A stretch of DNA of 12,575 nt from a virus (taxonomy: Duplodnaviria; Heunggongvirae; Uroviricota; Caudoviricetes; Crassvirales). The stretch lies in IMG/VR virus record IMGVR_UViG_3300017605_000245, positions 64,001 to 76,575 of that record; one strand, written 5' to 3'. Numbering within the stretch: position 1 is the first letter of the stretch; every line of letters begins with the position of its first letter. The notes beneath the pieces are model-generated. The model was not told the DNA's origin and made no database searches. It saw only the letters and a program-made list of their open reading frames with translations. Below, in pieces: positions 1 to 12,575 of this stretch. The position numbers were made by a program, and so were the translations under genes.

Positions 1-1155
1 CTGAATAAATTGTGCATTCTTAGTACCATATTTCTTACTCATAGCATTTGCTCTACGAATAATTTGTTCAATACTATTTAACTGCACATTAACTAATTCT
101 TTTAGCTTTTCATCTAAAGTCGAACCTTCAGGACCTTGAACCTTATTAAAGAACTCGTTACTTAATTTACTATATCTAGGGTCATAACTTAAAGTACCTT
201 TCCATTGAGATTTATTACGTGTACCAAATTCGTCTACGGTTTCAAATAAAAGGCTAGAATTAATAAGTTCGTTATTCAATATATTCTTAGACATTCCAAA
301 TAGTCTTCTTACTGCATCTACAAATTGATTCCACCAAGACTTTTCAATAGATTGAATCTCTGCTCTGAATTCAGGATTGGAGAATATCTCTGCAATAAAC
401 TCAGCTTGATTAGTAAATCCATAAGATAGATTACCGTCACTATCTCGTTTAGTAGCTAAGAATTTATATTGTTCATAACCTTGGTCAATAATTCTCTTAA
501 ATTCTTTCTCCTCAGGTGTTCTAGGTGCAAAGTAAGCTTGTACTGTGGTACTGTGAACAACCTCGTGAATAAAACTCGAAGCTATAGTTTGACTATCAAA
601 ATTTTCTAACGCTGTATCTGTTACATAAATTGTATTAGTAACTGAATCATACATCATAACAGATTTGTTATCAAATTTATTATAGACTGTAGGATTTGAT
701 TTAGCTGTAACTAACTTAACAGTTGCACCAGACTTACCTAACAACGCTGTAGCTTTATTTAAGAAGAATTCTACATGTTCTGAACTGTGGAATACATCAC
801 TACCAATTAAGTTGTTTAAAACGTCTGTAGGAGATATTGTAGTAACTTCATTATTACCAAACAATACTTCTCTATTTTTATTGTTAACAAATTGATTTAC
901 TTTAGCTTTTTCACCAACAGTAGTTAAAAATAAATCGTCAGCTTTCTCAGAAGTAACTCCTGAGAAGTCTACAGCTTCATCAACAACTTCTTCAACTTTT
1001 GTTTCAGTTAATTCTAAATCAGTAACAGCGGGAAAACTTTCCACACCATTCTGTTCTTGCCATTTAGCAACTTTCAATTCTAACAAGAATGAAGGAAGCT
1101 TACTAGCTTCCAACAATTCTTGAAATTCATTTGATTTTATGTTAATACAATTCAT
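1..1155 (-). CDS. Large virion-associated protein with N-terminal zincin-like metalloprotease domain (partial, 3' end beyond window)
   Basis: Translated by hand: ATG at 1155 (first ATG after an in-frame TAA at 1165-1167), open for 385 codons to base 1 with no stop, so absent from the ORF track. Sequence: MNCINIKSNEFQELLEASKLPSFLLELKVAKWQEQNGVESFP...SSFIHEVVHSTTVQAY...YGFTNQAEFIAEIFSNPEFRAEIQSIEKSWWNQFVDAVRRLFG...KYGTKNAQFIQ. A/T-ending codon bias matches the neighbours. Confidence 0.93.
   Translation of the reverse strand, partial: MNCINIKSNEFQELLEASKLPSFLLELKVAKWQEQNGVESFPAVTDLELTETKVEEVVDEAVDFSGVTSEKADDLFLTTVGEKAKVNQFVNNKNREVLFGNNEVTTISPTDVLNNLIGSDVFHSSEHVEFFLNKATALLGKSGATVKLVTAKSNPTVYNKFDNKSVMMYDSVTNTIYVTDTALENFDSQTIASSFIHEVVHSTTVQAYFAPRTPEEKEFKRIIDQGYEQYKFLATKRDSDGNLSYGFTNQAEFIAEIFSNPEFRAEIQSIEKSWWNQFVDAVRRLFGMSKNILNNELINSSLLFETVDEFGTRNKSQWKGTLSYDPRYSKLSNEFFNKVQGPEGSTLDEKLKELVNVQLNSIEQIIRRANAMSKKYGTKNAQFIQ
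367..567 (-). other. Zincin active-site motifs: HEVVH (553-567, H197-E198-H201) and downstream EFIAEIFSNPEF (367-402)
   Basis: HExxH zinc-binding motif preceded by a beta-strand stretch (MMYDSVTNTIYVTD) and followed about 50 aa later by an ExxAE helix (E252/E256) that typically supplies the third ligand in zincin/gluzincin-like domains of phage polyvalent proteins. Confidence 0.85.
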
Positions 1156-1169
1156 AATTAACCTTTACA
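1147..1169 (-). promoter_or_regulatory. Gene junction B: stop-start spacer TAA-TT-ATG (probable translational coupling)
   Basis: Minus strand reads AAA TGT AAA GGT TAA TT ATG AAT TGT ATT: 2-nt gap, A at -3, only a weak AAGG upstream. Confidence 0.55.
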
Positions 1170-4100
1170 TTTTTTTAAATATTCTATTAATTCCTCACTT
1201 GTCATATCTTTCAATGCTTGTTGAAGGAATCCTTTAGTTACACCATCAGCATAAAGTTCTTCTTTATGCTCTTTATAATAAGTTTCTAACTCTTCAGTAA
1301 AATCATTAAATTCTTTATATTCAACCACTTCCTCTTTAACTTTTAAATCATTCTCTTCCATAATTTGCTCAATCAATCTATTTTTCTGAGTTACTGTTGA
1401 ATTGTCTTTACTATCAAACGACTTTTTACCTGTAGCTAAAGAATAAATATTTTCATTAGCCGTTACTATATAATCAGTACCGTTAAAATCTGTAGTAGTA
1501 TAATAACCTATAGGTGTTAGTTTATCTAACTTAGGTGTACCACTAAATTTCTCACCTGCAATATTTATTAACTGTGCACCACCATTATCTGTAATATTCC
1601 AAACAATCCATGTGTTGTCTTTATATTTAACAACCGAACCTTTAGCTACTTCATGTGTAGTATCTTTAACAAATAATTGTTTAAGTAAATCTTTCTTAGA
1701 TTCTACAGATTTTGTTTCAACTTTAGTTTCAGGTTTTGTAAACACACCTTCGATTACAGGAGGAGTCGATGATAAATTAGTCAAAGGTTCTTTAACTACA
1801 ACATCTTCTTGTGTAAAATCATCTTCTTGTTGTGTAACCTCAGTTTCATCAAAAGGATATTGATAGATTTCATCTAAACCTGCTTTCATTATAGGAGAAA
1901 TTGTTTTGTCTACAGGAAGTATTACATTACGGGTATTGTACTCATTAATTGTAACACCTCTATCTTTCTCTGAAGCAATCGGTTTGATTTTAGCGTAACC
2001 ACCTTCAACAGGAATATATTGTGTATACATATTTTCAAATTCACCTTTAACCTGTCTAGAACCTAATCTTCTATAGAACTCACCTTTAACATTAATAAAT
2101 TCTTTAGTCACCTTAGCATTAAATAATGTAACACCGTCTTTAGAATAAGGCTGACCTTTCATCTTCATTGTTGGACTTACATATTTAACATATCTACTAT
2201 CATTTAAACTTGAAAGATAGAAATGGTCAATAAAGTTTTTATCTACCTCATTAGGGTACTTCGTAAATTCTTTCACATAACCATTAAAGTTATTCTGTAA
2301 GAAGAAACTTGGTGGTATGAATTGGAAGAAACTTGTTGTAGTATTATTAAACCCAGATGTTAAGAATGAATATTTAACTAAATCATTTCCAAATTCAGGA
2401 TAGTATTTAATTAAATCTCTCCAAGAGTTAATCATATTATCAGTGTATTCCTTAGAGTTAGTCTTATTATTTAGAATTAAATAAGACCTTTCTGCAGTTT
2501 TCTTAATAAACAATTCGTCTACAATCTGATATTTACCAGCATACTGATTCTTAAAGTCTATAAATTTATTAGGGAATTCTTCAATCAATCTATTTCTCTC
2601 TTCAGGAGACATATTAAAAGGCTCAAATCCTGACATTAAATAAGTGTTAAACGTTTTATCTAATTTATCACCTAAACCATCTTGAGCATCATCTTCTAGA
2701 TTTACACCATAAACCTGTTTAGAAATCTGATTGTAAGAGTTCCATACGAAAGGAGTTGATGACACAAACAATAGAGGATTACTTTGAACAATCTGCTGAG
2801 TGTTTAATAAATTATACTGATACTGATATGTTAATAGTTTTGGTGAACCATCTTCATATTTCATTTTAGTATCATAATTAAGAACACCTTTATTTTGAAT
2901 ATTCTGAATCTTATTGATAGCAATCAATAGTTGAGTAGTATTTTTACCCATACCATTAACACTATGTTTAGATGCATCTACACTTGATTTTAATTTCTTA
3001 GCATAACCTTGGAAGGTTAAGAAAGTATTAAAAGTATTAGCTTGGAAGTGTAAGTTAGATTTAAATACATTCTCTCTTAATTCACCTAATGGTTTATTAA
3101 TAATAAAACTCTCTACACCAAAATCATTTTTGAAGAAGATTGAGTGGTTTTTAACAATATTCTTAGCGGATTCTTCAATTCTTGCAATATCTGCTTCTGT
3201 AAGTTCATACTTCTCAGGAATACCTACTTTCTCTTTAATTGTCTGTAAGTTACGAGGTGCTATAAAATCTTTAGTGTTCAACATATCTAAGTTGTACTTA
3301 TATAATGTTGTCAACTCATATAGTGTTCTAGCATTCATTTCAATCTGTTCACCATTCTCTAATGTAGTAATGTGAACTAAATCAGTTTTAATTAATTCAC
3401 CTACTTTATAAATTCTAAAAGCATCTTTACTATTTGAAACTTGGGCAGACTTATCTTTGTTTTCATACTGACCAATAAAGTCAATGTATTCACTAATGAT
3501 AGGTTGTGCTAATGTTGACATTACTATGAAAGGATGTACACCTGCACGAAGCATCATGTTACCTGTATTAGTAGTCATCATATTCCAGTTTACATTTGTA
3601 ATATAAGGATCTTTAGCAATATCCACAAATGCATTCATTAATGCTGAAATATTATCTGAAATTGCAAAAGATTTATATGCTTTTACATCTTCATAAGACA
3701 ATTTCTTTTTAGCTCTCTTATTGTAAGAGTCTAACCACGCTTTTAATTCTGCATCTGAAATATCCTGTGAACGAATTTTATCAAATTTAGTATGGTCAGC
3801 AATTGTTGTATAATCTTCACCAGACTTATTAGTTCGTGTAACTTCTAAAGAAGCTCCAGAATGTGAACGTTCACCTAGATAAACATCTGATAAATATATA
3901 TCTGACATTGTACCCATCGCATAGTCAGAAGAAGTATTAGCTTCCTGTCCTACACCTGCAAGACCTGCTAAAAATGAATATTTAGTTACGATATCTTGTA
4001 CAAATTCATAATTATCTAAATCAGACTTCTCTTTAGCAGGAGCTAAATTTTGAGCTTCCATCTTAATATGAGGGAAGTCTAATGGAGTCATAATCTTAGT

Positions 4101-7100
4101 AATATTACTTTGATGTAAAATTAATGATTTATATAACTCAATTACTTTATTTTGAACAGCTTCTTTAGAATTACCTTCAGCAGACGTATAAACTAATTTA
4201 CCTTCCTTCTCTTTATAGTTAGGAAACATAATATACATCTTATCAATGTCAAAGTCACTACCTGTCTTCTTAGTGATACCTGTAAATGCTACAATAGTAT
4301 CTCCCATACCTGCAGGTAATATACCTACTACTCTCATAGCACCATTTGAAGAAGGTCCCTGATTTGGAATACGATATCCAATTATATTTTCTAGAATTTT
4401 ATTATCAATTAATCCTCCTTCCATTTGATTGGTTTCAGGATTTAATTTACCAAATAATTCTTCAGAAGTTCTAGATTCATAATCAGGAATATACTTAGCT
4501 ATAAATGACCCAGAAATCAATATTTCTTCAGGAGAGATAATATCTTCACCGAACATATTTTTAGCTCTTGTACCGTCTGCATTTAGTTTAAAAGTATAAG
4601 GTTTAGTTGTACCACCTAACTCTACAGTAGGTGACCATTTGATATTAATGTTGTCAGAATCAGCTTCTTCTTTAGATAAACCAAAGTTAGACATTTGAAT
4701 AAATGAACCACCATTAGTTTTAATCTTAACAGTTCTATCATTTACAATAGATGCAAAGATATTATCTAGTTTAGATTTCAAACCTGGTACAGCATAAATA
4801 GATAACTTAGCTCGTAATGCTTTAATGATTTCAGTACTAGCATCTCTCGATACTAATTCATCAGCTAAAGTATTATAGAATTTATCTATATTATTAATAG
4901 TACCGTCTTGAGCAATATCAAATTCTTTTACTAAATCATTGTAACCATTAATAACTAATTGTCCTAATGTACTATCTAATTCTTTAGCAAATTCTTCTGC
5001 GGTATATTGTGTATCACCATATGTGAAAATCTTCTCATTAGAACCTAACTTATCTGAGATAAGTAGTAACATGTTCTTTAAAATCTGAGAACCAATATCG
5101 GTTTCCTTATAACCTTTTACAGGTAAATCCTGTTGTAACTTCCAACCTATTGAACTTAAGGTCATTACATTTAAAGGTTTAAATTTACCGTCAGCATCTT
5201 TAACTTCAACACCACTTACATCATTATGAATTTTAGTAGGAACTACTGCTCCTGCTTTAATTGCATCAAATGTTAAAAGTTCATCAACTTCATGATTTTC
5301 CATAAAGTCAAAGATGTCTTTCAATTTAGTGTTGTTACGTAACTGAGGTAATAATACAGCCTGTGAATACTTTAAATAAATAGGAGCACCAACAGCATCT
5401 CTACCGAAGTAAACACCTTTAAGAGGTTGTGCTACTAATTTTAATTCGTCAGGTGTTAACGCCTCTTTATTCTTACCAGTTAACTTATTATAAACAGCTT
5501 CATGTTTAGTTGTATACTTCCCAACACCTAGATAAATAGATTTCCATCTCTTAGGTGTAATCCAAGCCTGAGCATCAGCAGCATTGATGTCATCTTTCTC
5601 CCATTCTTTTACAAGTTCAGGGTCAGATTTAATTACTTCTTTTAGTTCTGCTAAATAAGGTTCTCTAACTTCAACACTTTCTACAATACCAATCTTAAAG
5701 TCTTTATTAACATCACTTAGATATTCGTAGATACCGTCAGTATAAGAAGCTCCAATACGTTTAATATAATCTACAGAGTCTTTATAGTAAGCAACATCAC
5801 CTGAGAATACTTTAGAATATTCAATATGGTTAACTAAACCGTTTAACCATATATCTCCTAGCATCTTAAATAACTGCTTATCATTTAAAGCAAAGTTATC
5901 ACCACTATATTTTTTCCATATCTTAGAATCAATACCTTTACTAATGTAAGAGTTTTGACCTGAACGTTCAATTACATTATACTTAATTAAATCATTCTTT
6001 AAATCTTCAACGTGGTCTAATACCTTTTGTTCAATAAAAGCAAGTATATCATTTTTATAGAACCCAATATTTTCAGTAACAATACTACCATCTGTGTTGT
6101 ATAGAGGCTTACCATCGTATACTTTAAGTGTAGATTTGATTTTATCAAAACTTAAACTTGGAAACAATTGTGATTTAAACGCGTTACCTACAAGTTGACC
6201 ATCTTTATTAACAGTATTACCTTTTTTATCAGTATGATAATATACTTTAAGGTCTTTACCTTTCTTAACCTTTTCAGACTGTTCAGCCATTCTATTAAAC
6301 TCAGCCATCAAATATTCATTGAATAAAAGATTAACGGTAGTTGAAATCTCAGGTTCTTCATTTACAGTATTGAAACCTGCATCTAAAAATAACTGATGTT
6401 CAATATTATACTGTGTTGATTTACCTGGTGCAGTCGTAGTTCTAGTGTGAGTTGTACCGTCAATATGAAAATGAAGTAATCCATTTACAGTATCTTTAAC
6501 ATATTCATTCTTACTAATGTCTTTATTAGTTTTAGCCTTACCTTTCTTATTATCTTTATCTCTAAAGCTACTAAAATGGTTAATCTGAAACTTAGCGATT
6601 CTATCTTTACTAGTAGTTAATTGCTTATCTTCGTTATTAAGTACATCTAAAGCTAATAAATATTTATATAGAGAAGAGTTCTTCTCATAATCACTTAAAG
6701 TATTATACTCGTCTAAGAGCAACTGTCTGTCTTTCTTCCAAGTATTTATCTTATTGTGTAAATAGGATGGATTAGAATAAAGATAACGAGTCTCTCCTGC
6801 TGTCCATACAGATGATTCAGAACCATCTTCTTTAAAGAAAGCGTCACCTTTAGCTATTTGACGATACCAATAAGTATTTAAGATTGGTCTACCATTATTA
6901 TGGTTCTCAATCATCTTCTCAAAAGTCTTTAATGTGTTATCAATAAAGTTATAATAATTTTGGTCTAACTTAGCATCATCAATTTTATCATTACTAAATT
7001 CATTTAAAGCAATATTAAAAGCTGCTTCATTAATATTAATACCTACAGAAGGTAATAACTTCTCAAGAATATTGTAAGCCTTATCTTTATTAGAATGAGT

Positions 7101-8465
7101 CTTATTAGTTAATAACGTCTTAAGTTTAGCAACAACTTCATTTCTTTCTTGAAGTTTATCCTTAGTTAGAATACCTTTATTATTAGAATCAAATCCAAAA
7201 TGTTCTTCTAACTGATATTCCCAATTATTAAGAATACTTGTTTCAGCTTTAGTATCTTTAGAAGCATCTCCTTTATTATAATTATATTCCTTACCTGTAA
7301 TAGCTTCTTTAATAACTACGTTTACAATAGCTCCATTTGCAAGAGTCTTCTTTTCGGTAACAGCAGGAACTACAACTACTTCTTTAGAATCAACATCTGC
7401 ATATTCATAGTTATTCTTCTGAAGATTCATTACATTAACAAAACCTGCTTTAAAGTTTAAAACATTAATACCTTCGATAGTATTAGTCTTAGTTGGTAGT
7501 CTGTTAATCTTCTCTAAATATTCTACAACATTATTTAAATATTTAATATTATCAGAATGTTGTTTTAATTTATCAATAATAGTTTCAAATATGTCTTCAA
7601 CTTTACCTTGACTATCAACAGTAACAGGATTATTTTTAAGTAATGCTGTAATCTTATTATAAAGATTATTGTAGTCAATAGATTTAGATTGTCCAAAATC
7701 TTCATCAATATCAGAAGGATTCTTAATTAAAGATAATCTGATTTTTACTGCTGCAGTAACTTTACTTTTAGGATTAACTTTAAATGATGCTTGACCAAAT
7801 ACAGGATCACGTTGTTCCTGAGTGTCAGGGTCAACATCTTCTTGGTTATATTCCTCATTGTAAGCAATGTTTCTAGCTTTATAGAAGTCTTTAATCTTAG
7901 ATATCATCTCATCTAACGCTTTCTCATCATCTAAGATTTGAAATAAGGCACCTCCATTGTTTGCAAGGGTATCGCTATCGCTCATCATTAATTCAGAACC
8001 TAGCTCGTCTAAATGAGTCACAATAGATTCCTTTAGACTTTGTTTAGATGAGTTGTCTGACATATCTAAAGTATCAAAATCTAAATTAAAACCACCTTTT
8101 TCAATGTAGTTATTCGCTAATATCTCTACTAGCGAACTAACTGCACGTTGTGATTGTAAAATATTATAAAGATATGGTTCTACAACATCTTCATACTGTC
8201 TTTGATATTGAGCATCTAGATAATACATTCCTGTATTGTCTTCAAATAGTTCAGGTTCAAACTTATCGTTCACTCTCCCACTAAATTGTGGGGGAATGAA
8301 GTCTAATTGCTGTTCCATTAATGATTCATAATCACCAAATTCTTTCTTAAAAGTTTCAGATTGAAACATTACCATTTTCTTATCAGCTAAATCTTTACCA
8401 AATTTATCAATAAGTTTTTTATGTAATGTAGATTCTAAACCATTTCTTAATATAATACAGTCCAT
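1158..8465 (-). CDS. Virion-packaged DNA-dependent RNA polymerase, single-chain two-barrel (crAss-like phage vRNAP, phi14:2 gp66-like), 2435 aa
   Basis: Complete ORF from ATG 8465 (first start after in-frame TAA at 8487-8489) to TAA 1158-1160. Carries GSDFDIDKMY (D1404/D1406/D1408), YRIPNQG (R1365), ADAQAWITP (D964), PLKG and LKYS lysines (K1016, K1032) and AFVDIAKDP, in the order expected for fused beta/beta'-like DPBB barrels. Confidence 0.93.
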   Translation of the reverse strand: MDCIILRNGLESTLHKKLIDKFGKDLADKKMVMFQSETFKKEFGDYESLMEQQLDFIPPQFSGRVNDKFEPELFEDNTGMYYLDAQYQRQYEDVVEPYLYNILQSQRAVSSLVEILANNYIEKGGFNLDFDTLDMSDNSSKQSLKESIVTHLDELGSELMMSDSDTLANNGGALFQILDDEKALDEMISKIKDFYKARNIAYNEEYNQEDVDPDTQEQRDPVFGQASFKVNPKSKVTAAVKIRLSLIKNPSDIDEDFGQSKSIDYNNLYNKITALLKNNPVTVDSQGKVEDIFETIIDKLKQHSDNIKYLNNVVEYLEKINRLPTKTNTIEGINVLNFKAGFVNVMNLQKNNYEYADVDSKEVVVVPAVTEKKTLANGAIVNVVIKEAITGKEYNYNKGDASKDTKAETSILNNWEYQLEEHFGFDSNNKGILTKDKLQERNEVVAKLKTLLTNKTHSNKDKAYNILEKLLPSVGININEAAFNIALNEFSNDKIDDAKLDQNYYNFIDNTLKTFEKMIENHNNGRPILNTYWYRQIAKGDAFFKEDGSESSVWTAGETRYLYSNPSYLHNKINTWKKDRQLLLDEYNTLSDYEKNSSLYKYLLALDVLNNEDKQLTTSKDRIAKFQINHFSSFRDKDNKKGKAKTNKDISKNEYVKDTVNGLLHFHIDGTTHTRTTTAPGKSTQYNIEHQLFLDAGFNTVNEEPEISTTVNLLFNEYLMAEFNRMAEQSEKVKKGKDLKVYYHTDKKGNTVNKDGQLVGNAFKSQLFPSLSFDKIKSTLKVYDGKPLYNTDGSIVTENIGFYKNDILAFIEQKVLDHVEDLKNDLIKYNVIERSGQNSYISKGIDSKIWKKYSGDNFALNDKQLFKMLGDIWLNGLVNHIEYSKVFSGDVAYYKDSVDYIKRIGASYTDGIYEYLSDVNKDFKIGIVESVEVREPYLAELKEVIKSDPELVKEWEKDDINAADAQAWITPKRWKSIYLGVGKYTTKHEAVYNKLTGKNKEALTPDELKLVAQPLKGVYFGRDAVGAPIYLKYSQAVLLPQLRNNTKLKDIFDFMENHEVDELLTFDAIKAGAVVPTKIHNDVSGVEVKDADGKFKPLNVMTLSSIGWKLQQDLPVKGYKETDIGSQILKNMLLLISDKLGSNEKIFTYGDTQYTAEEFAKELDSTLGQLVINGYNDLVKEFDIAQDGTINNIDKFYNTLADELVSRDASTEIIKALRAKLSIYAVPGLKSKLDNIFASIVNDRTVKIKTNGGSFIQMSNFGLSKEEADSDNINIKWSPTVELGGTTKPYTFKLNADGTRAKNMFGEDIISPEEILISGSFIAKYIPDYESRTSEELFGKLNPETNQMEGGLIDNKILENIIGYRIPNQGPSSNGAMRVVGILPAGMGDTIVAFTGITKKTGSDFDIDKMYIMFPNYKEKEGKLVYTSAEGNSKEAVQNKVIELYKSLILHQSNITKIMTPLDFPHIKMEAQNLAPAKEKSDLDNYEFVQDIVTKYSFLAGLAGVGQEANTSSDYAMGTMSDIYLSDVYLGERSHSGASLEVTRTNKSGEDYTTIADHTKFDKIRSQDISDAELKAWLDSYNKRAKKKLSYEDVKAYKSFAISDNISALMNAFVDIAKDPYITNVNWNMMTTNTGNMMLRAGVHPFIVMSTLAQPIISEYIDFIGQYENKDKSAQVSNSKDAFRIYKVGELIKTDLVHITTLENGEQIEMNARTLYELTTLYKYNLDMLNTKDFIAPRNLQTIKEKVGIPEKYELTEADIARIEESAKNIVKNHSIFFKNDFGVESFIINKPLGELRENVFKSNLHFQANTFNTFLTFQGYAKKLKSSVDASKHSVNGMGKNTTQLLIAINKIQNIQNKGVLNYDTKMKYEDGSPKLLTYQYQYNLLNTQQIVQSNPLLFVSSTPFVWNSYNQISKQVYGVNLEDDAQDGLGDKLDKTFNTYLMSGFEPFNMSPEERNRLIEEFPNKFIDFKNQYAGKYQIVDELFIKKTAERSYLILNNKTNSKEYTDNMINSWRDLIKYYPEFGNDLVKYSFLTSGFNNTTTSFFQFIPPSFFLQNNFNGYVKEFTKYPNEVDKNFIDHFYLSSLNDSRYVKYVSPTMKMKGQPYSKDGVTLFNAKVTKEFINVKGEFYRRLGSRQVKGEFENMYTQYIPVEGGYAKIKPIASEKDRGVTINEYNTRNVILPVDKTISPIMKAGLDEIYQYPFDETEVTQQEDDFTQEDVVVKEPLTNLSSTPPVIEGVFTKPETKVETKSVESKKDLLKQLFVKDTTHEVAKGSVVKYKDNTWIVWNITDNGGAQLINIAGEKFSGTPKLDKLTPIGYYTTTDFNGTDYIVTANENIYSLATGKKSFDSKDNSTVTQKNRLIEQIMEENDLKVKEEVVEYKEFNDFTEELETYYKEHKEELYADGVTKGFLQQALKDMTSEELIEYLKKCKG
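3606..3662 (-). other. Probable bridge helix region of RNAP (ISDNISALMNAFVDIAKDP)
   Basis: Amphipathic helix ending in VDxAK about 200 aa after DFDID, resembling the AVDxxK bridge-helix motif of single-chain two-barrel polymerases (eukaryotic RNAi RdRPs, phage vRNAPs). Confidence 0.6.
4242..4256 (-). other. RNAP catalytic Mg2+-binding loop DFDID
   Basis: Minus-strand GAC TTT GAC ATT GAT = DFDID, the DxDxD motif of two-barrel polymerases. The DFDID variant (rather than cellular NADFDGD) is the one described for crAss-like vRNAP. The conserved R-x-P motif (RIP, 4365-4373) lies 39 residues upstream. Confidence 0.92.
5364..5576 (-). other. Probable second (beta-like) DPBB barrel motifs of the RNAP: D964 (DAQAWITP), K1016 (PLKG), K1032 (LKYS)
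   Basis: An acidic residue followed by two lysines, upstream of the DxDxD barrel, as in two-barrel polymerases. Assigned by motif order and recall of the family, not by alignment. Confidence 0.6.
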
Positions 8466-8472
8466 ATTAACA
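8457..8472 (-). promoter_or_regulatory. Gene junction A: stop-start spacer TAA-T-ATG (probable translational coupling, no Shine-Dalgarno)
   Basis: Minus strand reads AAA TGT TAA T ATG GAC TGT ATT: 1-nt gap, A at -3, no AGGAG upstream. Consistent with SD-independent initiation known in Bacteroidota. Confidence 0.55.
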
Positions 8473-11400
8473 TTTTTGTTGTGTTCTTATTTTTTCAGCT
8501 AATTTTAACAGTTGCTGTTCTGCATCTTCTGCAATCTTAGTAAACTTCTCTACAGCTACTTGATTACCTCTCTTGGTCATATTCTCAACATTGTTTCGAG
8601 ATACTGTTAAAGTTTTCTCAAGTCTCTCCTGTTCTAATAAATCATCACCTTTAACTTCTAATCCTTTAAAAGCTTCTTGATAATCTTTATATTCAGGTGT
8701 ACCAGGTATATCTGTCTTATTCACGATTGTAATTGTTTCTTTAGGTAAAGATACGACTTTTTCCTGAGATTTCAAAATATTTTCGTAATTATTTTCAACA
8801 GTTTCTCTAATAAAGTCTTCAACCATATCATAAGTCTCTAATTGACCATCAATATAAATACCTTCGTCAGAATAAACAACCTCTTCTACTGCAATAAATT
8901 TACCATCAGCATCTAAAACATAATCAGGACTTTTAATAGTGTCACTGTCAAGTTCACGTTTATTTAAAATGTTACCAACAATTTTGCGATATTCAGCAAC
9001 TTTTTCAACTTTTAACTTATCCTTATCAATAGCTGAAACAGCTTCTTCCTGAGTTTGAACTACAGGATTTACTATTGTTTCTACAGGTTTAGCTTTAGAT
9101 TCAATTGTAGAACTTATCCACAATTCAGAACCTCTATTCTTTTTAATATCCTTAGCTTTAGTATCTGTAGATTGTTTAAAAGAACTTCCATTAGGATCTG
9201 TATCTAAATTAGTATTAACAATTTTATTATCAAATAAGTATTTTAAATATGTAGCATTCTTAAAGTTTAAGTCTTTATTTACATTAGCATCTGTAGTAAT
9301 TGTCATTACATTGTGATACTTATTTTGTAAGTCTTTACCTAATTCTTCCATATCATATTGGAAGTAATCTTTATTATTATAAGTAATGTATCGATTTCCC
9401 TCTATATCTTCTTTAATTACAATTGATTGGTCATTATTACTATCTTCAAGAACTAATGCTTCAATTAATTTACTGATTTGAATCGTAGCAGGATTATTTC
9501 CTAGTAATTCAATCTCGGAAGATAATACTTTTAGAACTTCATTATAAACATCTTCATTAACTCCTTTTAAGCTAATTAAATTTTCAGTTCTTAATTCAGG
9601 ATTATGCAATAACTCACTATAAATCTGTGCCAATGTAGAAGCTTTAACTTCATTTAGTCTACTAAAGTTTAGTTTAACAGGAACATTATCTCCTTTAGGA
9701 TTTTTAATTACAAGAAAAATTTGACCCTTTTGACTTTCAACAGTCTTACTAATATTAGATGTTAAAGGTGCTTTATTGTCAGATACTAAAATTAAATCTC
9801 CTTTATTATTAACGTGATAAAGAGTTACTTTATTCTCAGGATTTTTTGAGTCTAAAGTTCTAATATAATCTATTTCTAAAGGATTATTCTTAACAGGTTT
9901 ACCACCTTCAAACTTAGTATTAAAACTAGGAGTCTCTTGATTGGTAACTGTAGTACTTAAATCATCTAATGTAGCTCCTGCAATAAGAGCATCTACAATA
10001 TTAGTTCTAAGTTTAACTGCATTAGGTCCTTTAAATGATGACCATGATTTAGCTTGTCCGTTATTATAAACAAAGTTAAGAGGTAGATTATCAATTAAGA
10101 ATTGTCTATTACCTGCTAAATCATCTCTAGTTTGAAGAATTTCAATTGCTTTTTCAATTCTTTCTTTATCTTCTTTCTTTGTAGCGGAATTAAACGTAGG
10201 TTTTTCATTAAGTTCAAACGTAACTACATCACCTTTCTTATCACGAGGTTCCATCTGATAAGTTTTAAAAGACGGATTGTTATTATCGTAACCAACTGTC
10301 TTATGGTCTGAAAACGTAGTACCTCCTGTAACAGGATTAATAGTTGTTACATCAACATCATCTGCAGAATTCTCATCTGATACATCTTGCGTAAAAGTAT
10401 GAGTAGTAACCTCACCTGTAGTAGGACTTGTTAAAGTAACACTATTAGGAGTAGTTGCTGTAACTGTCTCAGGCTCTTGCGTAACAGGATTAACAACAGT
10501 AGTTGTACCTGCAGGTTGAGTTTGTGCAGCTAGTGCCGCTTGTTTTAAAGCCTCTTCCTCTGCAGCCTTAGCTTCTAATTCTGCAAGTTTTGCAGCTTCT
10601 TCAGCATCTTGGTCAATCTCTCTATTGGTAATCTCTCCTGCTTCTAATTCAGCTTTCTTAACATTATAAGCTTTCTTTAATACAGGATTATTCTGTAAAT
10701 CAAGTTTCTCTAATTCTTCAAGAGTAGTTGCCGCAGAAATAGCATTAGATGTTTCATCTAAAGATAAAACCTTAGCAGGTTCTACTGCAGCTTTAATTTC
10801 CTCTTTAACTTCTACGTGTTTATTAAATTGTTGATTATGAAAATCATTATCCCAAATTAAATTGTTAGTAGTTTCTTCAAAATCTCTTAAATCAGACTCA
10901 GCTTTATCAATCTTTTTATTAAGTTCTGTTAATACAGGACTTTTAGGTTCAACGGTTCGAGTTTTATAAATATCTTCCATTCCTGCTTTATAGTCAGGAT
11001 TAACTTCTGTTGTAGGAGTATGTGTTAAAACTCTAGCTTTCTCAGATTTTAACTTCTCAAGTTCTTTACGTGTATCATATTCCTCAGCTCTTTCATTGAT
11101 AAACGCATCGCTTACTTTATTTAAATAAGTTAATACATCTTCTTTATTTGCTTTAGGGTCATTAATTTTGATAATATTAGTAGCCATATCTTTGAAAGAA
11201 GTTAAATCCTTTTGCAAAGATTTAGCTTTTTCAACCATATCTGATGTACGTTTTAAGTTATCTTTATTGATCTTACCTGTATCTTTATCTTCTTGTGGAA
11301 ATATAGTCTTTAAATGCTCTTGTAATGCCTCAATAGATGCTTCATCTTCAGTAATAAAACTTGAAATCAAATCAGTTTCAGTTTTCTTTTTAAGATAATC

Positions 11401-12575
11401 AACTAATTCTACGTCTCCTGCTTCAACAGCTTTATCATAAAGTTTTGATACTTCCTCATTCATATCTAAAGCAATTTTAACTCTAGCTACATTTTCAGGA
11501 ATTAAGATATCGTCACCATTCTCATCTTTTCTACGAATTTCAATATCTTCACCTGTCTCAGGATCTTTAGATAATTCAGTTTCGTAAAGTGGTAAGTTAA
11601 CATCTGTTAGTTTAACACCGATTCCTTGAACTTTATTTCTAAGCCTTTCACTATTAGATTGATCACGTTTATCTTGTTTGTAACCACTTACCACAGATAT
11701 AGGTGAACCTAAGATTCCGCCTAAGAAACCCGCAACCTGTCCTTCAGTTGTACCTAAAGTACGAATAAAATCTTCACCTAATGTACTTAAACTATAATCA
11801 TCCATGAATGACTTACCAAGTTTACCCTGTAAACCACTTTCAACATTTCGATTTTCTGTTGCAGATTGTGCAATCTCTTCACCACCTTCTGATAAAAAAG
11901 ACTGTCCTATCCTTTTAGCAGCTTTTCCTACAGTTTGTGTTGCAGAAGGAGTCATTACATTATTTACTAAATTTTTAGTAGTGTTTTTACCAAATAATAG
12001 TTTAGCTTGAATGTAGTTAGGTCCTGCGAGAATACCTACGTTCTTAATAAACGTATTCTTCATTGCTTCACCTTTCTGAGTTTGAAATTCTTTCTCAGCT
12101 TCAGCTTCTAAGTTATTGATTTGTGTATCATAATCTTCTTGAGAAATAAGACCTTGTGTTTTTTGTAAAGCGAGACTATTAACAAAAGCTTCATGTTCTT
12201 TAAAATAATTAGTTTTAAATTCATCTTTACGTGCCTCCATTGTATCGCCTACACCTTTAGCTTCAGCTCCTGCTTCAAAATAAGTATTAACTGCAGGGAT
12301 CATAAGATTATCAATCTTATCAATAGTAACTCCAGCAGCAGTTAATGCTTTACGAGCACCTTCTACATTTTTACCATATTTTGTAAGTTGTGCTAATTTT
12401 GTAGCACCTCCAAATATTTTATTACCTGCTCCAAGTGCTTTTAAGGCTGCACCAGGTGCCATAGCCGAGATTAAATATCCCACACCATCAGCACCTTCAG
12501 TAGCCCAAAATTCACCAGATGTAACTTTATCTAAAAAATCTCCATCTTCAACAGTCTTACTTACATATACAGGAA
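8467..12575 (-). CDS. Large virion/ejection protein with Gly-rich membrane-type helices and coiled coils (partial, 5' end beyond window; >1368 aa)
   Basis: The frame stays open upstream of the track's GTG at 12483 to the window edge (adds PVYVSKTVEDGDFLDKVTSGEFWATEGADG before V-GYLISAMAPG). Stop is TAA 8467-8469. Contains FWATEGADGVGYLISAMAPGAALKALGAG, EGGEEIAQ and GQVAGFLGGILGSPISVVSG segments, then charged helical regions. It lies directly upstream of the vRNAP. No catalytic motif recognised. Confidence 0.88.
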   Translation of the reverse strand, partial: PVYVSKTVEDGDFLDKVTSGEFWATEGADGVGYLISAMAPGAALKALGAGNKIFGGATKLAQLTKYGKNVEGARKALTAAGVTIDKIDNLMIPAVNTYFEAGAEAKGVGDTMEARKDEFKTNYFKEHEAFVNSLALQKTQGLISQEDYDTQINNLEAEAEKEFQTQKGEAMKNTFIKNVGILAGPNYIQAKLLFGKNTTKNLVNNVMTPSATQTVGKAAKRIGQSFLSEGGEEIAQSATENRNVESGLQGKLGKSFMDDYSLSTLGEDFIRTLGTTEGQVAGFLGGILGSPISVVSGYKQDKRDQSNSERLRNKVQGIGVKLTDVNLPLYETELSKDPETGEDIEIRRKDENGDDILIPENVARVKIALDMNEEVSKLYDKAVEAGDVELVDYLKKKTETDLISSFITEDEASIEALQEHLKTIFPQEDKDTGKINKDNLKRTSDMVEKAKSLQKDLTSFKDMATNIIKINDPKANKEDVLTYLNKVSDAFINERAEEYDTRKELEKLKSEKARVLTHTPTTEVNPDYKAGMEDIYKTRTVEPKSPVLTELNKKIDKAESDLRDFEETTNNLIWDNDFHNQQFNKHVEVKEEIKAAVEPAKVLSLDETSNAISAATTLEELEKLDLQNNPVLKKAYNVKKAELEAGEITNREIDQDAEEAAKLAELEAKAAEEEALKQAALAAQTQPAGTTTVVNPVTQEPETVTATTPNSVTLTSPTTGEVTTHTFTQDVSDENSADDVDVTTINPVTGGTTFSDHKTVGYDNNNPSFKTYQMEPRDKKGDVVTFELNEKPTFNSATKKEDKERIEKAIEILQTRDDLAGNRQFLIDNLPLNFVYNNGQAKSWSSFKGPNAVKLRTNIVDALIAGATLDDLSTTVTNQETPSFNTKFEGGKPVKNNPLEIDYIRTLDSKNPENKVTLYHVNNKGDLILVSDNKAPLTSNISKTVESQKGQIFLVIKNPKGDNVPVKLNFSRLNEVKASTLAQIYSELLHNPELRTENLISLKGVNEDVYNEVLKVLSSEIELLGNNPATIQISKLIEALVLEDSNNDQSIVIKEDIEGNRYITYNNKDYFQYDMEELGKDLQNKYHNVMTITTDANVNKDLNFKNATYLKYLFDNKIVNTNLDTDPNGSSFKQSTDTKAKDIKKNRGSELWISSTIESKAKPVETIVNPVVQTQEEAVSAIDKDKLKVEKVAEYRKIVGNILNKRELDSDTIKSPDYVLDADGKFIAVEEVVYSDEGIYIDGQLETYDMVEDFIRETVENNYENILKSQEKVVSLPKETITIVNKTDIPGTPEYKDYQEAFKGLEVKGDDLLEQERLEKTLTVSRNNVENMTKRGNQVAVEKFTKIAEDAEQQLLKLAEKIRTQQKC
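10300..10605 (-). repeat. Low-complexity protein linker: Ala/Glu/Lys helix (EEAAKLAELEAKAAEEEALKQAALAAQ) followed by Thr/Pro/Val-rich segment with imperfect NPVT/SPTT repeats
   Basis: Translation shows VVNPVTQE, TSPTTGE and TINPVTGG. The 13-mer gtaacaggattaa occurs at 10328-10340 and 10481-10493. Confidence 0.6.
11683..11742 (-). other. Putative GxxxG-type transmembrane/membrane-inserting helix GQVAGFLGGILGSPISVVSG
   Basis: 20 uncharged residues with repeated Gly at i/i+3/i+4, followed by basic YKQDKR. Confidence 0.55.

Follow-up and report, generated by a model that had tools for sequence, protein, structure and literature searches.

How ~600 kDa of virion RNA polymerase (RNAP) and partner proteins pass through a tail channel of under 50 Å is the question raised by a stretch of DNA from a virus of the order Crassvirales. 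The crAss-like phages are the most abundant human gut viruses. The stretch, hereafter the window, is 12,575 nucleotides (nt) long (positions 64,001–76,575 of IMG/VR virus record IMGVR_UViG_3300017605_000245) and forms the right end of a viral contig of 76,575 bp with 30% GC. Judged by its genes, it comes from an uncultured crAss-like phage and holds the cargo block of the virion RNA polymerase. All of its long open reading frames (ORFs) lie on the minus strand and encode three giant proteins: A, the polymerase R and C. Together these have four cysteines (Cys) in 1368 + 2435 + 385 = 4188 visible residues, and each of the four sits at a terminus that faces the neighboring protein in the order A-R-C. 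The genes and the Cys codons are as follows (aa, amino acids).

8467..12573, minus strand: protein A, 1368 aa visible, truncated at the 5' end where the contig stops; sole Cys at the last residue
1158..8465, minus strand: R, the virion RNA polymerase, 2435 aa; Cys solely at residues 3 and 2433
1..1155, minus strand: gp65-like protein C, of whose 1395 aa the first 385 are in the window; its gene extends to contig position 60968
8470..8472, minus strand: Cys codon, last residue of A (..RTQQKC-stop), read from the translation
8457..8459, minus strand: Cys3 codon of R (MDC..), read from the translation
1167..1169, minus strand: Cys2433 codon of R (..YLKKCKG-stop; 2433 of 2435), after a short helix motif, (S/T)xEE..I..C, common to near relatives
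1147..1149, minus strand: Cys3 codon of C (MNC..), which opens a conserved ~45-aa N-terminal module

The initial annotation of this DNA had described these four codons and proposed that each C-terminal Cys pairs with the N-terminal Cys of the next protein. Translation of the three ORFs bore out the description, including the statement that R and C begin at the first start codon after an in-frame stop. Full-length C (1395 aa) contains Cys3 alone, as the 1010 further residues past the window are Cys-free. The claim that Cys is far below its typical level also held, with 4 observed against ~46–52 expected. Here, positional base composition predicts 11.4 + 29.3 + 5.5 = 46 in A, R and C, and the remaining predicted proteome of the phage, which is 1.23% Cys compared to 0.08% in the cargo proteins of the window, predicts 51.5 (Poisson P(≤4) = 1.3e-17). 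Read in its other frames, this DNA contains 4–141 Cys codons.

One explanation for the position of the four residues is that they are a by-product of DNA or translation signals at tight gene junctions, or that they arose by chance in a Cys-poor, AT-rich genome. The two junctions in the window are in fact alike in DNA (AAAAATGT..TAAT(T)ATG.A.TGTATTA), and the A/R and R/C genes are only 1–2 nt apart. Chance is opposed by a probability of ~6e-12, for the window alone, that each of the four facing termini would have one of four Cys no more than 3 residues away. Evidence against a DNA signal came from loci in which the genes are dispersed, as explained below.

The pattern was followed across crAss-like phages in a survey that combined two IMG/VR scans with named phages. 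This gave 110 loci (the best 80 of at least 547 IMG/VR matches plus 30 other loci), which reduce to 81 non-redundant clusters when the catalytic region is grouped at 90% identity. The surveyed RNAPs range from 75% down to ~23% identity to the catalytic region of R. Start codons were taken as the first ATG, 16 loci were read with TAG as Gln, and a junction was counted between consecutive low-Cys proteins of at least 1000 aa.

Cys is present on both sides at 108 of the 114 junctions between consecutive giants. In 66 of these 108 pairs the N-terminal Cys is the third residue, and in 88 the C-terminal Cys is 0–2 residues from the end. The exact position floats, from residue 2 to 7 at the N-terminus and from 0 to 8 residues from the end at the C-terminus. 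Lys and Arg account for 31% of the residues within 3 positions of the C-terminal Cys, compared to 13% overall. Elsewhere in the cargo giants Cys is nearly absent (170 internal Cys in 433,338 residues, or 0.039%), and the other ORFs at the surveyed loci are 1.12% Cys, with 10% having a Cys within the first 12 residues. Conservation of the terminal Cys in homologues, which the initial annotation had proposed to test, extends over the full range of identity and includes a crAss001-like phage as well as Cellulophaga phage phi14:2. In the latter, gp67 ends ..NTIC, gp66 runs MAC..QECK and the start of gp65 is MSC, and their 5398 residues contain no further Cys; all three are virion components by mass spectrometry. 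The companion claim, that each terminal Cys has a partner on the next protein, is upheld at the 108 junctions, and the six others have specific explanations that are given below. A literature search found no description of the terminal Cys of crAss-like cargo proteins, including in the preprint on these polymerases (10.1101/2020.03.07.982082) and the crAss001 atlas (PMC10172136).

The termini that have no neighbor generally lack the residue. An N-terminal Cys is absent from 57 of 65 chain-first proteins, and in each of the remaining 8, A is cut off, on the other strand or elsewhere. Similarly, a C-terminal Cys is absent from 74 of 76 chain-last proteins. These Cys-free ends are not predicted by an explanation in which each terminal Cys acts alone, that is, in homodimers, in attachment to the portal or capsid interior or in acylation, without an A-R-C chain.

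The paired Cys co-vary with protein boundaries, being present together and lost together. In A+R fusions (3.5–5.2k aa), the A/R pair is absent and the R/C pair is kept, as a C-terminal Cys followed by the M-x-C start of the next protein. In the reciprocal architecture, where A is separate and R is fused to C (L067), it is the R/C pair that is absent. In whole-protein BLAST, the two parts of this fusion aligned collinearly with R and C proteins that are separate in relatives, and a linker of ~100 aa without Cys connects the two parts. The A+R+C fusions (L017 and L022–24), which exceed 5,100 aa and reach 5636 residues, contain zero Cys. Conversely, L061 has an extra protein between AR and C, and this protein carries a Cys at either end and none elsewhere. 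In p-crAssphage and crAss002 the domains are divided differently, and the single boundary is still flanked by ..SC(M/S)-stop and MSC. The co-loss of paired Cys that the initial annotation had suggested looking for is therefore seen in all three kinds of fusion and is mirrored by a gain at the extra boundary. Joint loss of a C-terminal Cys and the next N-terminal Cys on fusion is also not predicted if each residue acts alone.

Further support came from a maximum-likelihood tree of the catalytic region, in which the fused or split state of A and R changes 7 times and the N-terminal Cys also changes 7 times. In 5 phylogenetically independent pairs, Cys changed in the same way in 4–5 and never in the opposite way. 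A label of "R+C fused" that had been given to L009 and L102 on the basis of length was rejected, as in both of them R merely has a longer tail and C follows as a protein of its own. This mislabelling is the reason that 2 of 4 pairs did not differ. Profiles of 150-aa termini from split cassettes, when searched against the fused proteins, did not map the old junctions, as the tails are too divergent.

The pattern is independent of gene position. In the crAss001-like phage PhiCrAssBcn1 (L030) and in L016, L019 and L020, A is encoded on the opposite strand and ends ..RCNS, ..NCH or ..NCRK. The C gene of L005 lies 6 kb from R, with ordinary Cys-containing genes in between. In L026, R starts MAEPSC and there is no A at the locus, and an A partner was predicted elsewhere in the genome. 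The predicted protein was found on the 116-kb contig G002, at a distance of ~15 kb and on the other strand, where an ORF of at least 2014 aa has its sole Cys as the second-to-last residue. A sequence search for an A homologue in G002 and G003 returned none, and the G002 partner was identified by its ORF properties. That an N-terminal Cys on R should foretell a distant A with a C-terminal Cys is again not predicted by Cys that act alone.

As the pairs persist with A on the opposite strand or ~15 kb away, the Cys rule acts at the level of the protein and not of the DNA. The dispersed-gene loci contradict the explanation by DNA or translation signals; in addition, spacing and codon context vary between junctions and the Cys persist in recoded genomes. 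We consider an origin in such signals, or in chance, to be scarcely credible. The same loci modify the proposal in the initial annotation of a chain that is colinear with gene order: the chain order A-R-C stands, and it follows the order of the proteins and not that of the genes, with A located elsewhere in crAss001-like and other gut lineages.

Stop-codon recoding is known in some crAss-like lineages. In the TAG-recoded lineages of the survey (L085–L110, 16 loci, for example L085:641-18387), the cargo genes can be read only if TAG is a sense codon, and each complete giant gene contains 22–64 in-frame TAG codons. Here, 3–8 internal Cys are tolerated and the terminal pair (..KKECE-stop and MQC) is kept. 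In two other loci the RNAP ORF itself is interrupted, by an insert of ~950 nt that breaks it inside the DFDxD codons (L004, 14261–15206, same contig as L031; L043, 11291–12232). In L004, the group I intron model matches the insert at either end (E 2.8e-7 and 6e-5, which is below the Rfam gathering score), and the insert carries a 214-aa ORF that is probably a homing endonuclease. No Cys is present at the intron-like breaks in L004 and L043, which is expected if splicing yields a continuous protein, and the two loci serve as a negative control.

To explain the pattern, we lean towards a model in which head-to-tail disulfides would join the giants into a pseudo-polyprotein, to be ejected as a single thread and then taken apart by reduction. 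A, R and C are purged of Cys like other ejected phage proteins, save at the termini that face the next protein. Each C-terminal Cys would be disulfide-bonded to the N-terminal Cys of the protein that follows, probably after non-covalent docking of the tails. In this way, separately translated proteins would be concatenated head to tail in a linear thread that exceeds 5,000 residues and keeps N-to-C polarity throughout. Past the bond, the overhangs would be ~0–2 and 2–4 residues and, because they are so short, the junction would be hardly thicker than a single chain and could pass a narrow tail channel like a polyprotein. Once in the reducing host cytoplasm the bonds would open, freeing the RNAP and its partners. 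The enrichment of Lys and Arg near the C-terminal Cys would favor a reactive thiolate. Consistent with threading, the crAss001 cargo proteins gp47, gp49 and gp50 must partly unfold to pass tail constrictions of under 50 Å, and inter-subunit disulfides are known from the tail and portal-vertex proteins of crAss001 virions (PMC10172136).

By parity alone, other connections would be possible, for example a cyclised R with A joined to C. A linear arrangement, in which the C-terminus of A is bonded to the N-terminus of R (A_C-R_N) and the C-terminus of R to the N-terminus of C (R_C-C_N), is the only pairing that fits every architecture without re-pairing. This scheme matches the polarity of the fused polyprotein. 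We judge it an even call that the model holds across Crassvirales, where the giants would be stitched post-translationally by single terminal disulfides into a thread of >5,000 residues, which would traverse the tail in a fixed order with N-to-C polarity and be dismantled by the reducing host cytoplasm. This would be a delivery mode not yet described and one that is evolutionarily interchangeable with gene fusion.

In near relatives of the window phage, the residues next to the R/C pair form recognizable modules. R ends in a conserved helix, (S/T)xEE(K/R)..II.NC (window 1161–1300; alignment A2, with invariant columns E110 and C118), and C opens with a ~45-aa module, M.NC(I/V)N......L....L.SP.....K...WQ..N....FP (window 1030–1155; alignment A3), in which C3, N5, Q33 and P42 are invariant in 8 relatives. 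These are possible docking elements and are seen solely in this subclade. When the last 80 aa of R and the first 80 aa of C were co-folded using 8-row alignments, the score was 0.31 relative to a mark of 0.32, with controls at 0.00. A comparison of the N-termini of R and C in the window revealed no homology.

The modules bear on a second explanation, in which the facing termini pair by other chemistry, either through a bridging metal ion or by non-covalent docking with Cys as a key contact, and serve stoichiometric co-packaging or regulation of the RNAP instead of threading. The short helical modules beside the Cys would suit such docking, as would the assembly of virions in a reducing cytoplasm, and it is true that co-loss on fusion and the parity rule demonstrate coupled termini and not the type of bond. 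However, there is one Cys per terminus and, beyond the invariant positions listed above for A2 and A3, no other conserved metal ligand is near. A floating Cys also suits a flexible tail more than a structured site, and the strict exclusion of other Cys is expected if thiol oxidation matters. We regard metal bridging or docking without a bond as unlikely. The floating positions, the divergent and often low-complexity tails, the enrichment of Lys and Arg and the exclusion of other thiols fit a disulfide between flexible tails, which is the bond that we infer.

Several observations weigh against the disulfide chain. As virions are assembled in a reducing cytoplasm and many hosts live in the anoxic gut, the moment at which the disulfides would form is hard to place. 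Across the order, the sequence around the Cys shows poor conservation and a common docking interface is not evident. The sign test on the independent pairs gave p 0.06–0.125, being underpowered at 5 pairs. In two loci, the C-terminal Cys is 17 or 31 residues from the end. One junction, in L073, is a real exception, with a protein that starts MGC and is preceded by an ORF without a C-terminal Cys. Finally, three smaller cargo-like proteins have a single near-terminal Cys for which a partner is not evident.

L027:1891-3564: crAss002 gp30, lone Cys 550 of 557
L028:3039-4835: Fpv3 gp30, lone Cys 5 of 598
L029:825-3410: crAssphage LMMB 861-aa protein, lone Cys 860 of 861

These lone residues, and the unpartnered N-terminal Cys of L073, are what would be expected of Cys that act alone. 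The small proteins sit just upstream of the chain, where 31 of 37 such ORFs are entirely Cys-free, and it is possible that their Cys serve homodimers or another link. With Cys-free chain ends, joint loss on fusion and the distant A partner all opposed to it, independent action of the terminal Cys in general appears quite improbable to us.

The six unpaired junctions comprise one at phi14:2 gp71, two at L004 and L043, two at L021 and crAss002 gp33, and one at L073. In phi14:2, gp71 is not adjacent to the cargo block. Those of L004 and L043 are artefacts of the length filter, produced where the RNAP gene is interrupted. The starts of the L021 ORF and of crAss002 gp33 have probably been set too far upstream: in L021:16416-20735, an internal Met gives MVC (residue 11; ..INMVC) and the longer ORF overlaps the end of the RNAP gene, while in crAss002 gp33 (L027:12586-25323) an internal Met gives MSC (residue 33; ..KYMSC).

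The layout of L073 is unusual in other respects. At L073:7130-21399, the RNAP ORF is followed by an overlapping, out-of-frame ORF of 1161 aa that has no terminal Cys and has internal Cys at 353 and 360. Next in line are a protein of 871 aa that carries a Cys at either end and another that begins MGKC. This layout may reflect a frameshift or a different partition of the proteins.

The closest known systems are phi14:2 gp67-gp66-gp65 and crAss001 gp47-gp50-gp49. As in these, R is homologous to gp66 and is flanked by a giant A and a giant C with HExxH in C; phi14:2 and a crAss001-like phage share the terminal Cys pattern of the window, although R is only ~30% identical to gp66. The fused crAss-like vRNAP polyproteins contain the same modules in one chain of 3.5–5.6k aa and differ in that fusion points are Cys-free and the all-fused forms have zero Cys. 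In the reading proposed here, they would be the peptide-bond equivalent of the Cys-linked chain. Fused vRNAPs were noted by Drobysheva et al., who propose proteolytic cleavage, perhaps by a zincin domain, and not reduction (10.1101/2020.03.07.982082). The fused forms may rely on that domain for release, as the preprint suggests.

Suppression of Cys has been documented in the ejection proteins of N4-like phages (Schitoviridae; PMC11445570). The Schitoviridae vRNAP gp50, gp51/gp52 and DEV gp71–73 resemble the crAss-like cargo in that a giant virion RNAP and its partners are ejected through a narrow tail and are depleted in Cys. In contrast to the crAss-like proteins, they have essentially no Cys whatsoever and no terminal pairs. 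The N4-like vRNAP has been described as a single chain, with beads on a string, and the N4-like and crAss-like RNAPs as fundamentally distinct in structure (PMC13434306). How crassvirus ejection proteins work is described as unresolved in the same paper, and the crAss001 atlas says likewise of the passage of the cargo (PMC13434306; PMC10172136).

A mechanistic analogy, without homology, is offered by the di-chain AB toxins. In diphtheria toxin and the clostridial neurotoxins, one interchain disulfide is present during translocation through a narrow channel and is reduced in the target cytosol. The toxin chains are produced by nicking a single precursor and are not bonded at their extreme termini, whereas the phage proteins are separately translated and would be joined end to end.

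An order-wide rule of one Cys pair per protein boundary and none elsewhere provides a concrete model that can be tested on gels. If it is true, the cargo travels as one covalent thread that is built either by gene fusion or by terminal disulfides, and infection may depend on redox conditions. The rule is also of practical use. It marks true protein boundaries and start codons, as when it flagged crAss002 gp33 and L021; it tells intron breaks from protein breaks; and it predicts missing partners elsewhere in a genome.

The N-terminal ~160 residues of A lie beyond the window and are unseen, as the contig is a fragment. Joining the contig ends (window 12573–12575 to the left end) lengthened A in frame to 1517 aa and added a Cys at residue 82, and this candidate was rejected. 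The 148-aa piece at the left end (G000:C1:1-445) matches, at 70% identity, part of a separate gene of 337 aa on the 95.9-kb parent contig of L002, and a comparison with A proteins revealed no similarity. Because the piece belongs to a separate gene of ~337 aa that is unlike any A, the circular join is a coincidence. The contig is a 76.6-kb fragment of a ~96-kb genome and is missing the tail and cargo module that would lie between A and the head genes.

The block of A, R and C genes is itself of an already known type, to which the Cys rule and the chain model add a feature that is new. R lies in the structural module between the gp67-like and gp65-like giants, with the protein order A-R-C. It matches phi14:2 g066 (tblastn 2e-131, 30% identity over 68% of the query) and PDB 6VR4 (6vr4_A, phmmer E 1.5e-176). 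DFDxD is the catalytic motif of two-barrel RNAPs, and D464, D466 and D468 are invariant in the 21-sequence alignment A1. By this homology, together with its DFDID motif, R is identified as a gp66-type RNAP, that is, a true homologue of phi14:2 gp66 in the crAss-like virion RNAP family. The motifs of R and C are located as follows.

4242..4256, minus strand: DFDID catalytic motif of R, residues 1404–1408; invariant columns in alignment A1
553..567, minus strand: HEVVH (HExxH) motif of C, residues 197–201; fits the zincin-like protease domain reported for gp65 orthologues

That domain, HExxH included, and the presence of gp65, gp66 and gp67 orthologues in virions were reported in the preprint (10.1101/2020.03.07.982082). 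Packaging and ejection into the host are known solely from cultured relatives. Pfam searches of A, R and C returned no match in any, and the sole match in PHROGs was a marginal one in C (phrog_37402, function unknown, E 6e-4). A is gp67-like by position and is 51% identical to the A protein of L002, and the same contig carries crAss-type major head, portal, terminase and GroEL genes.

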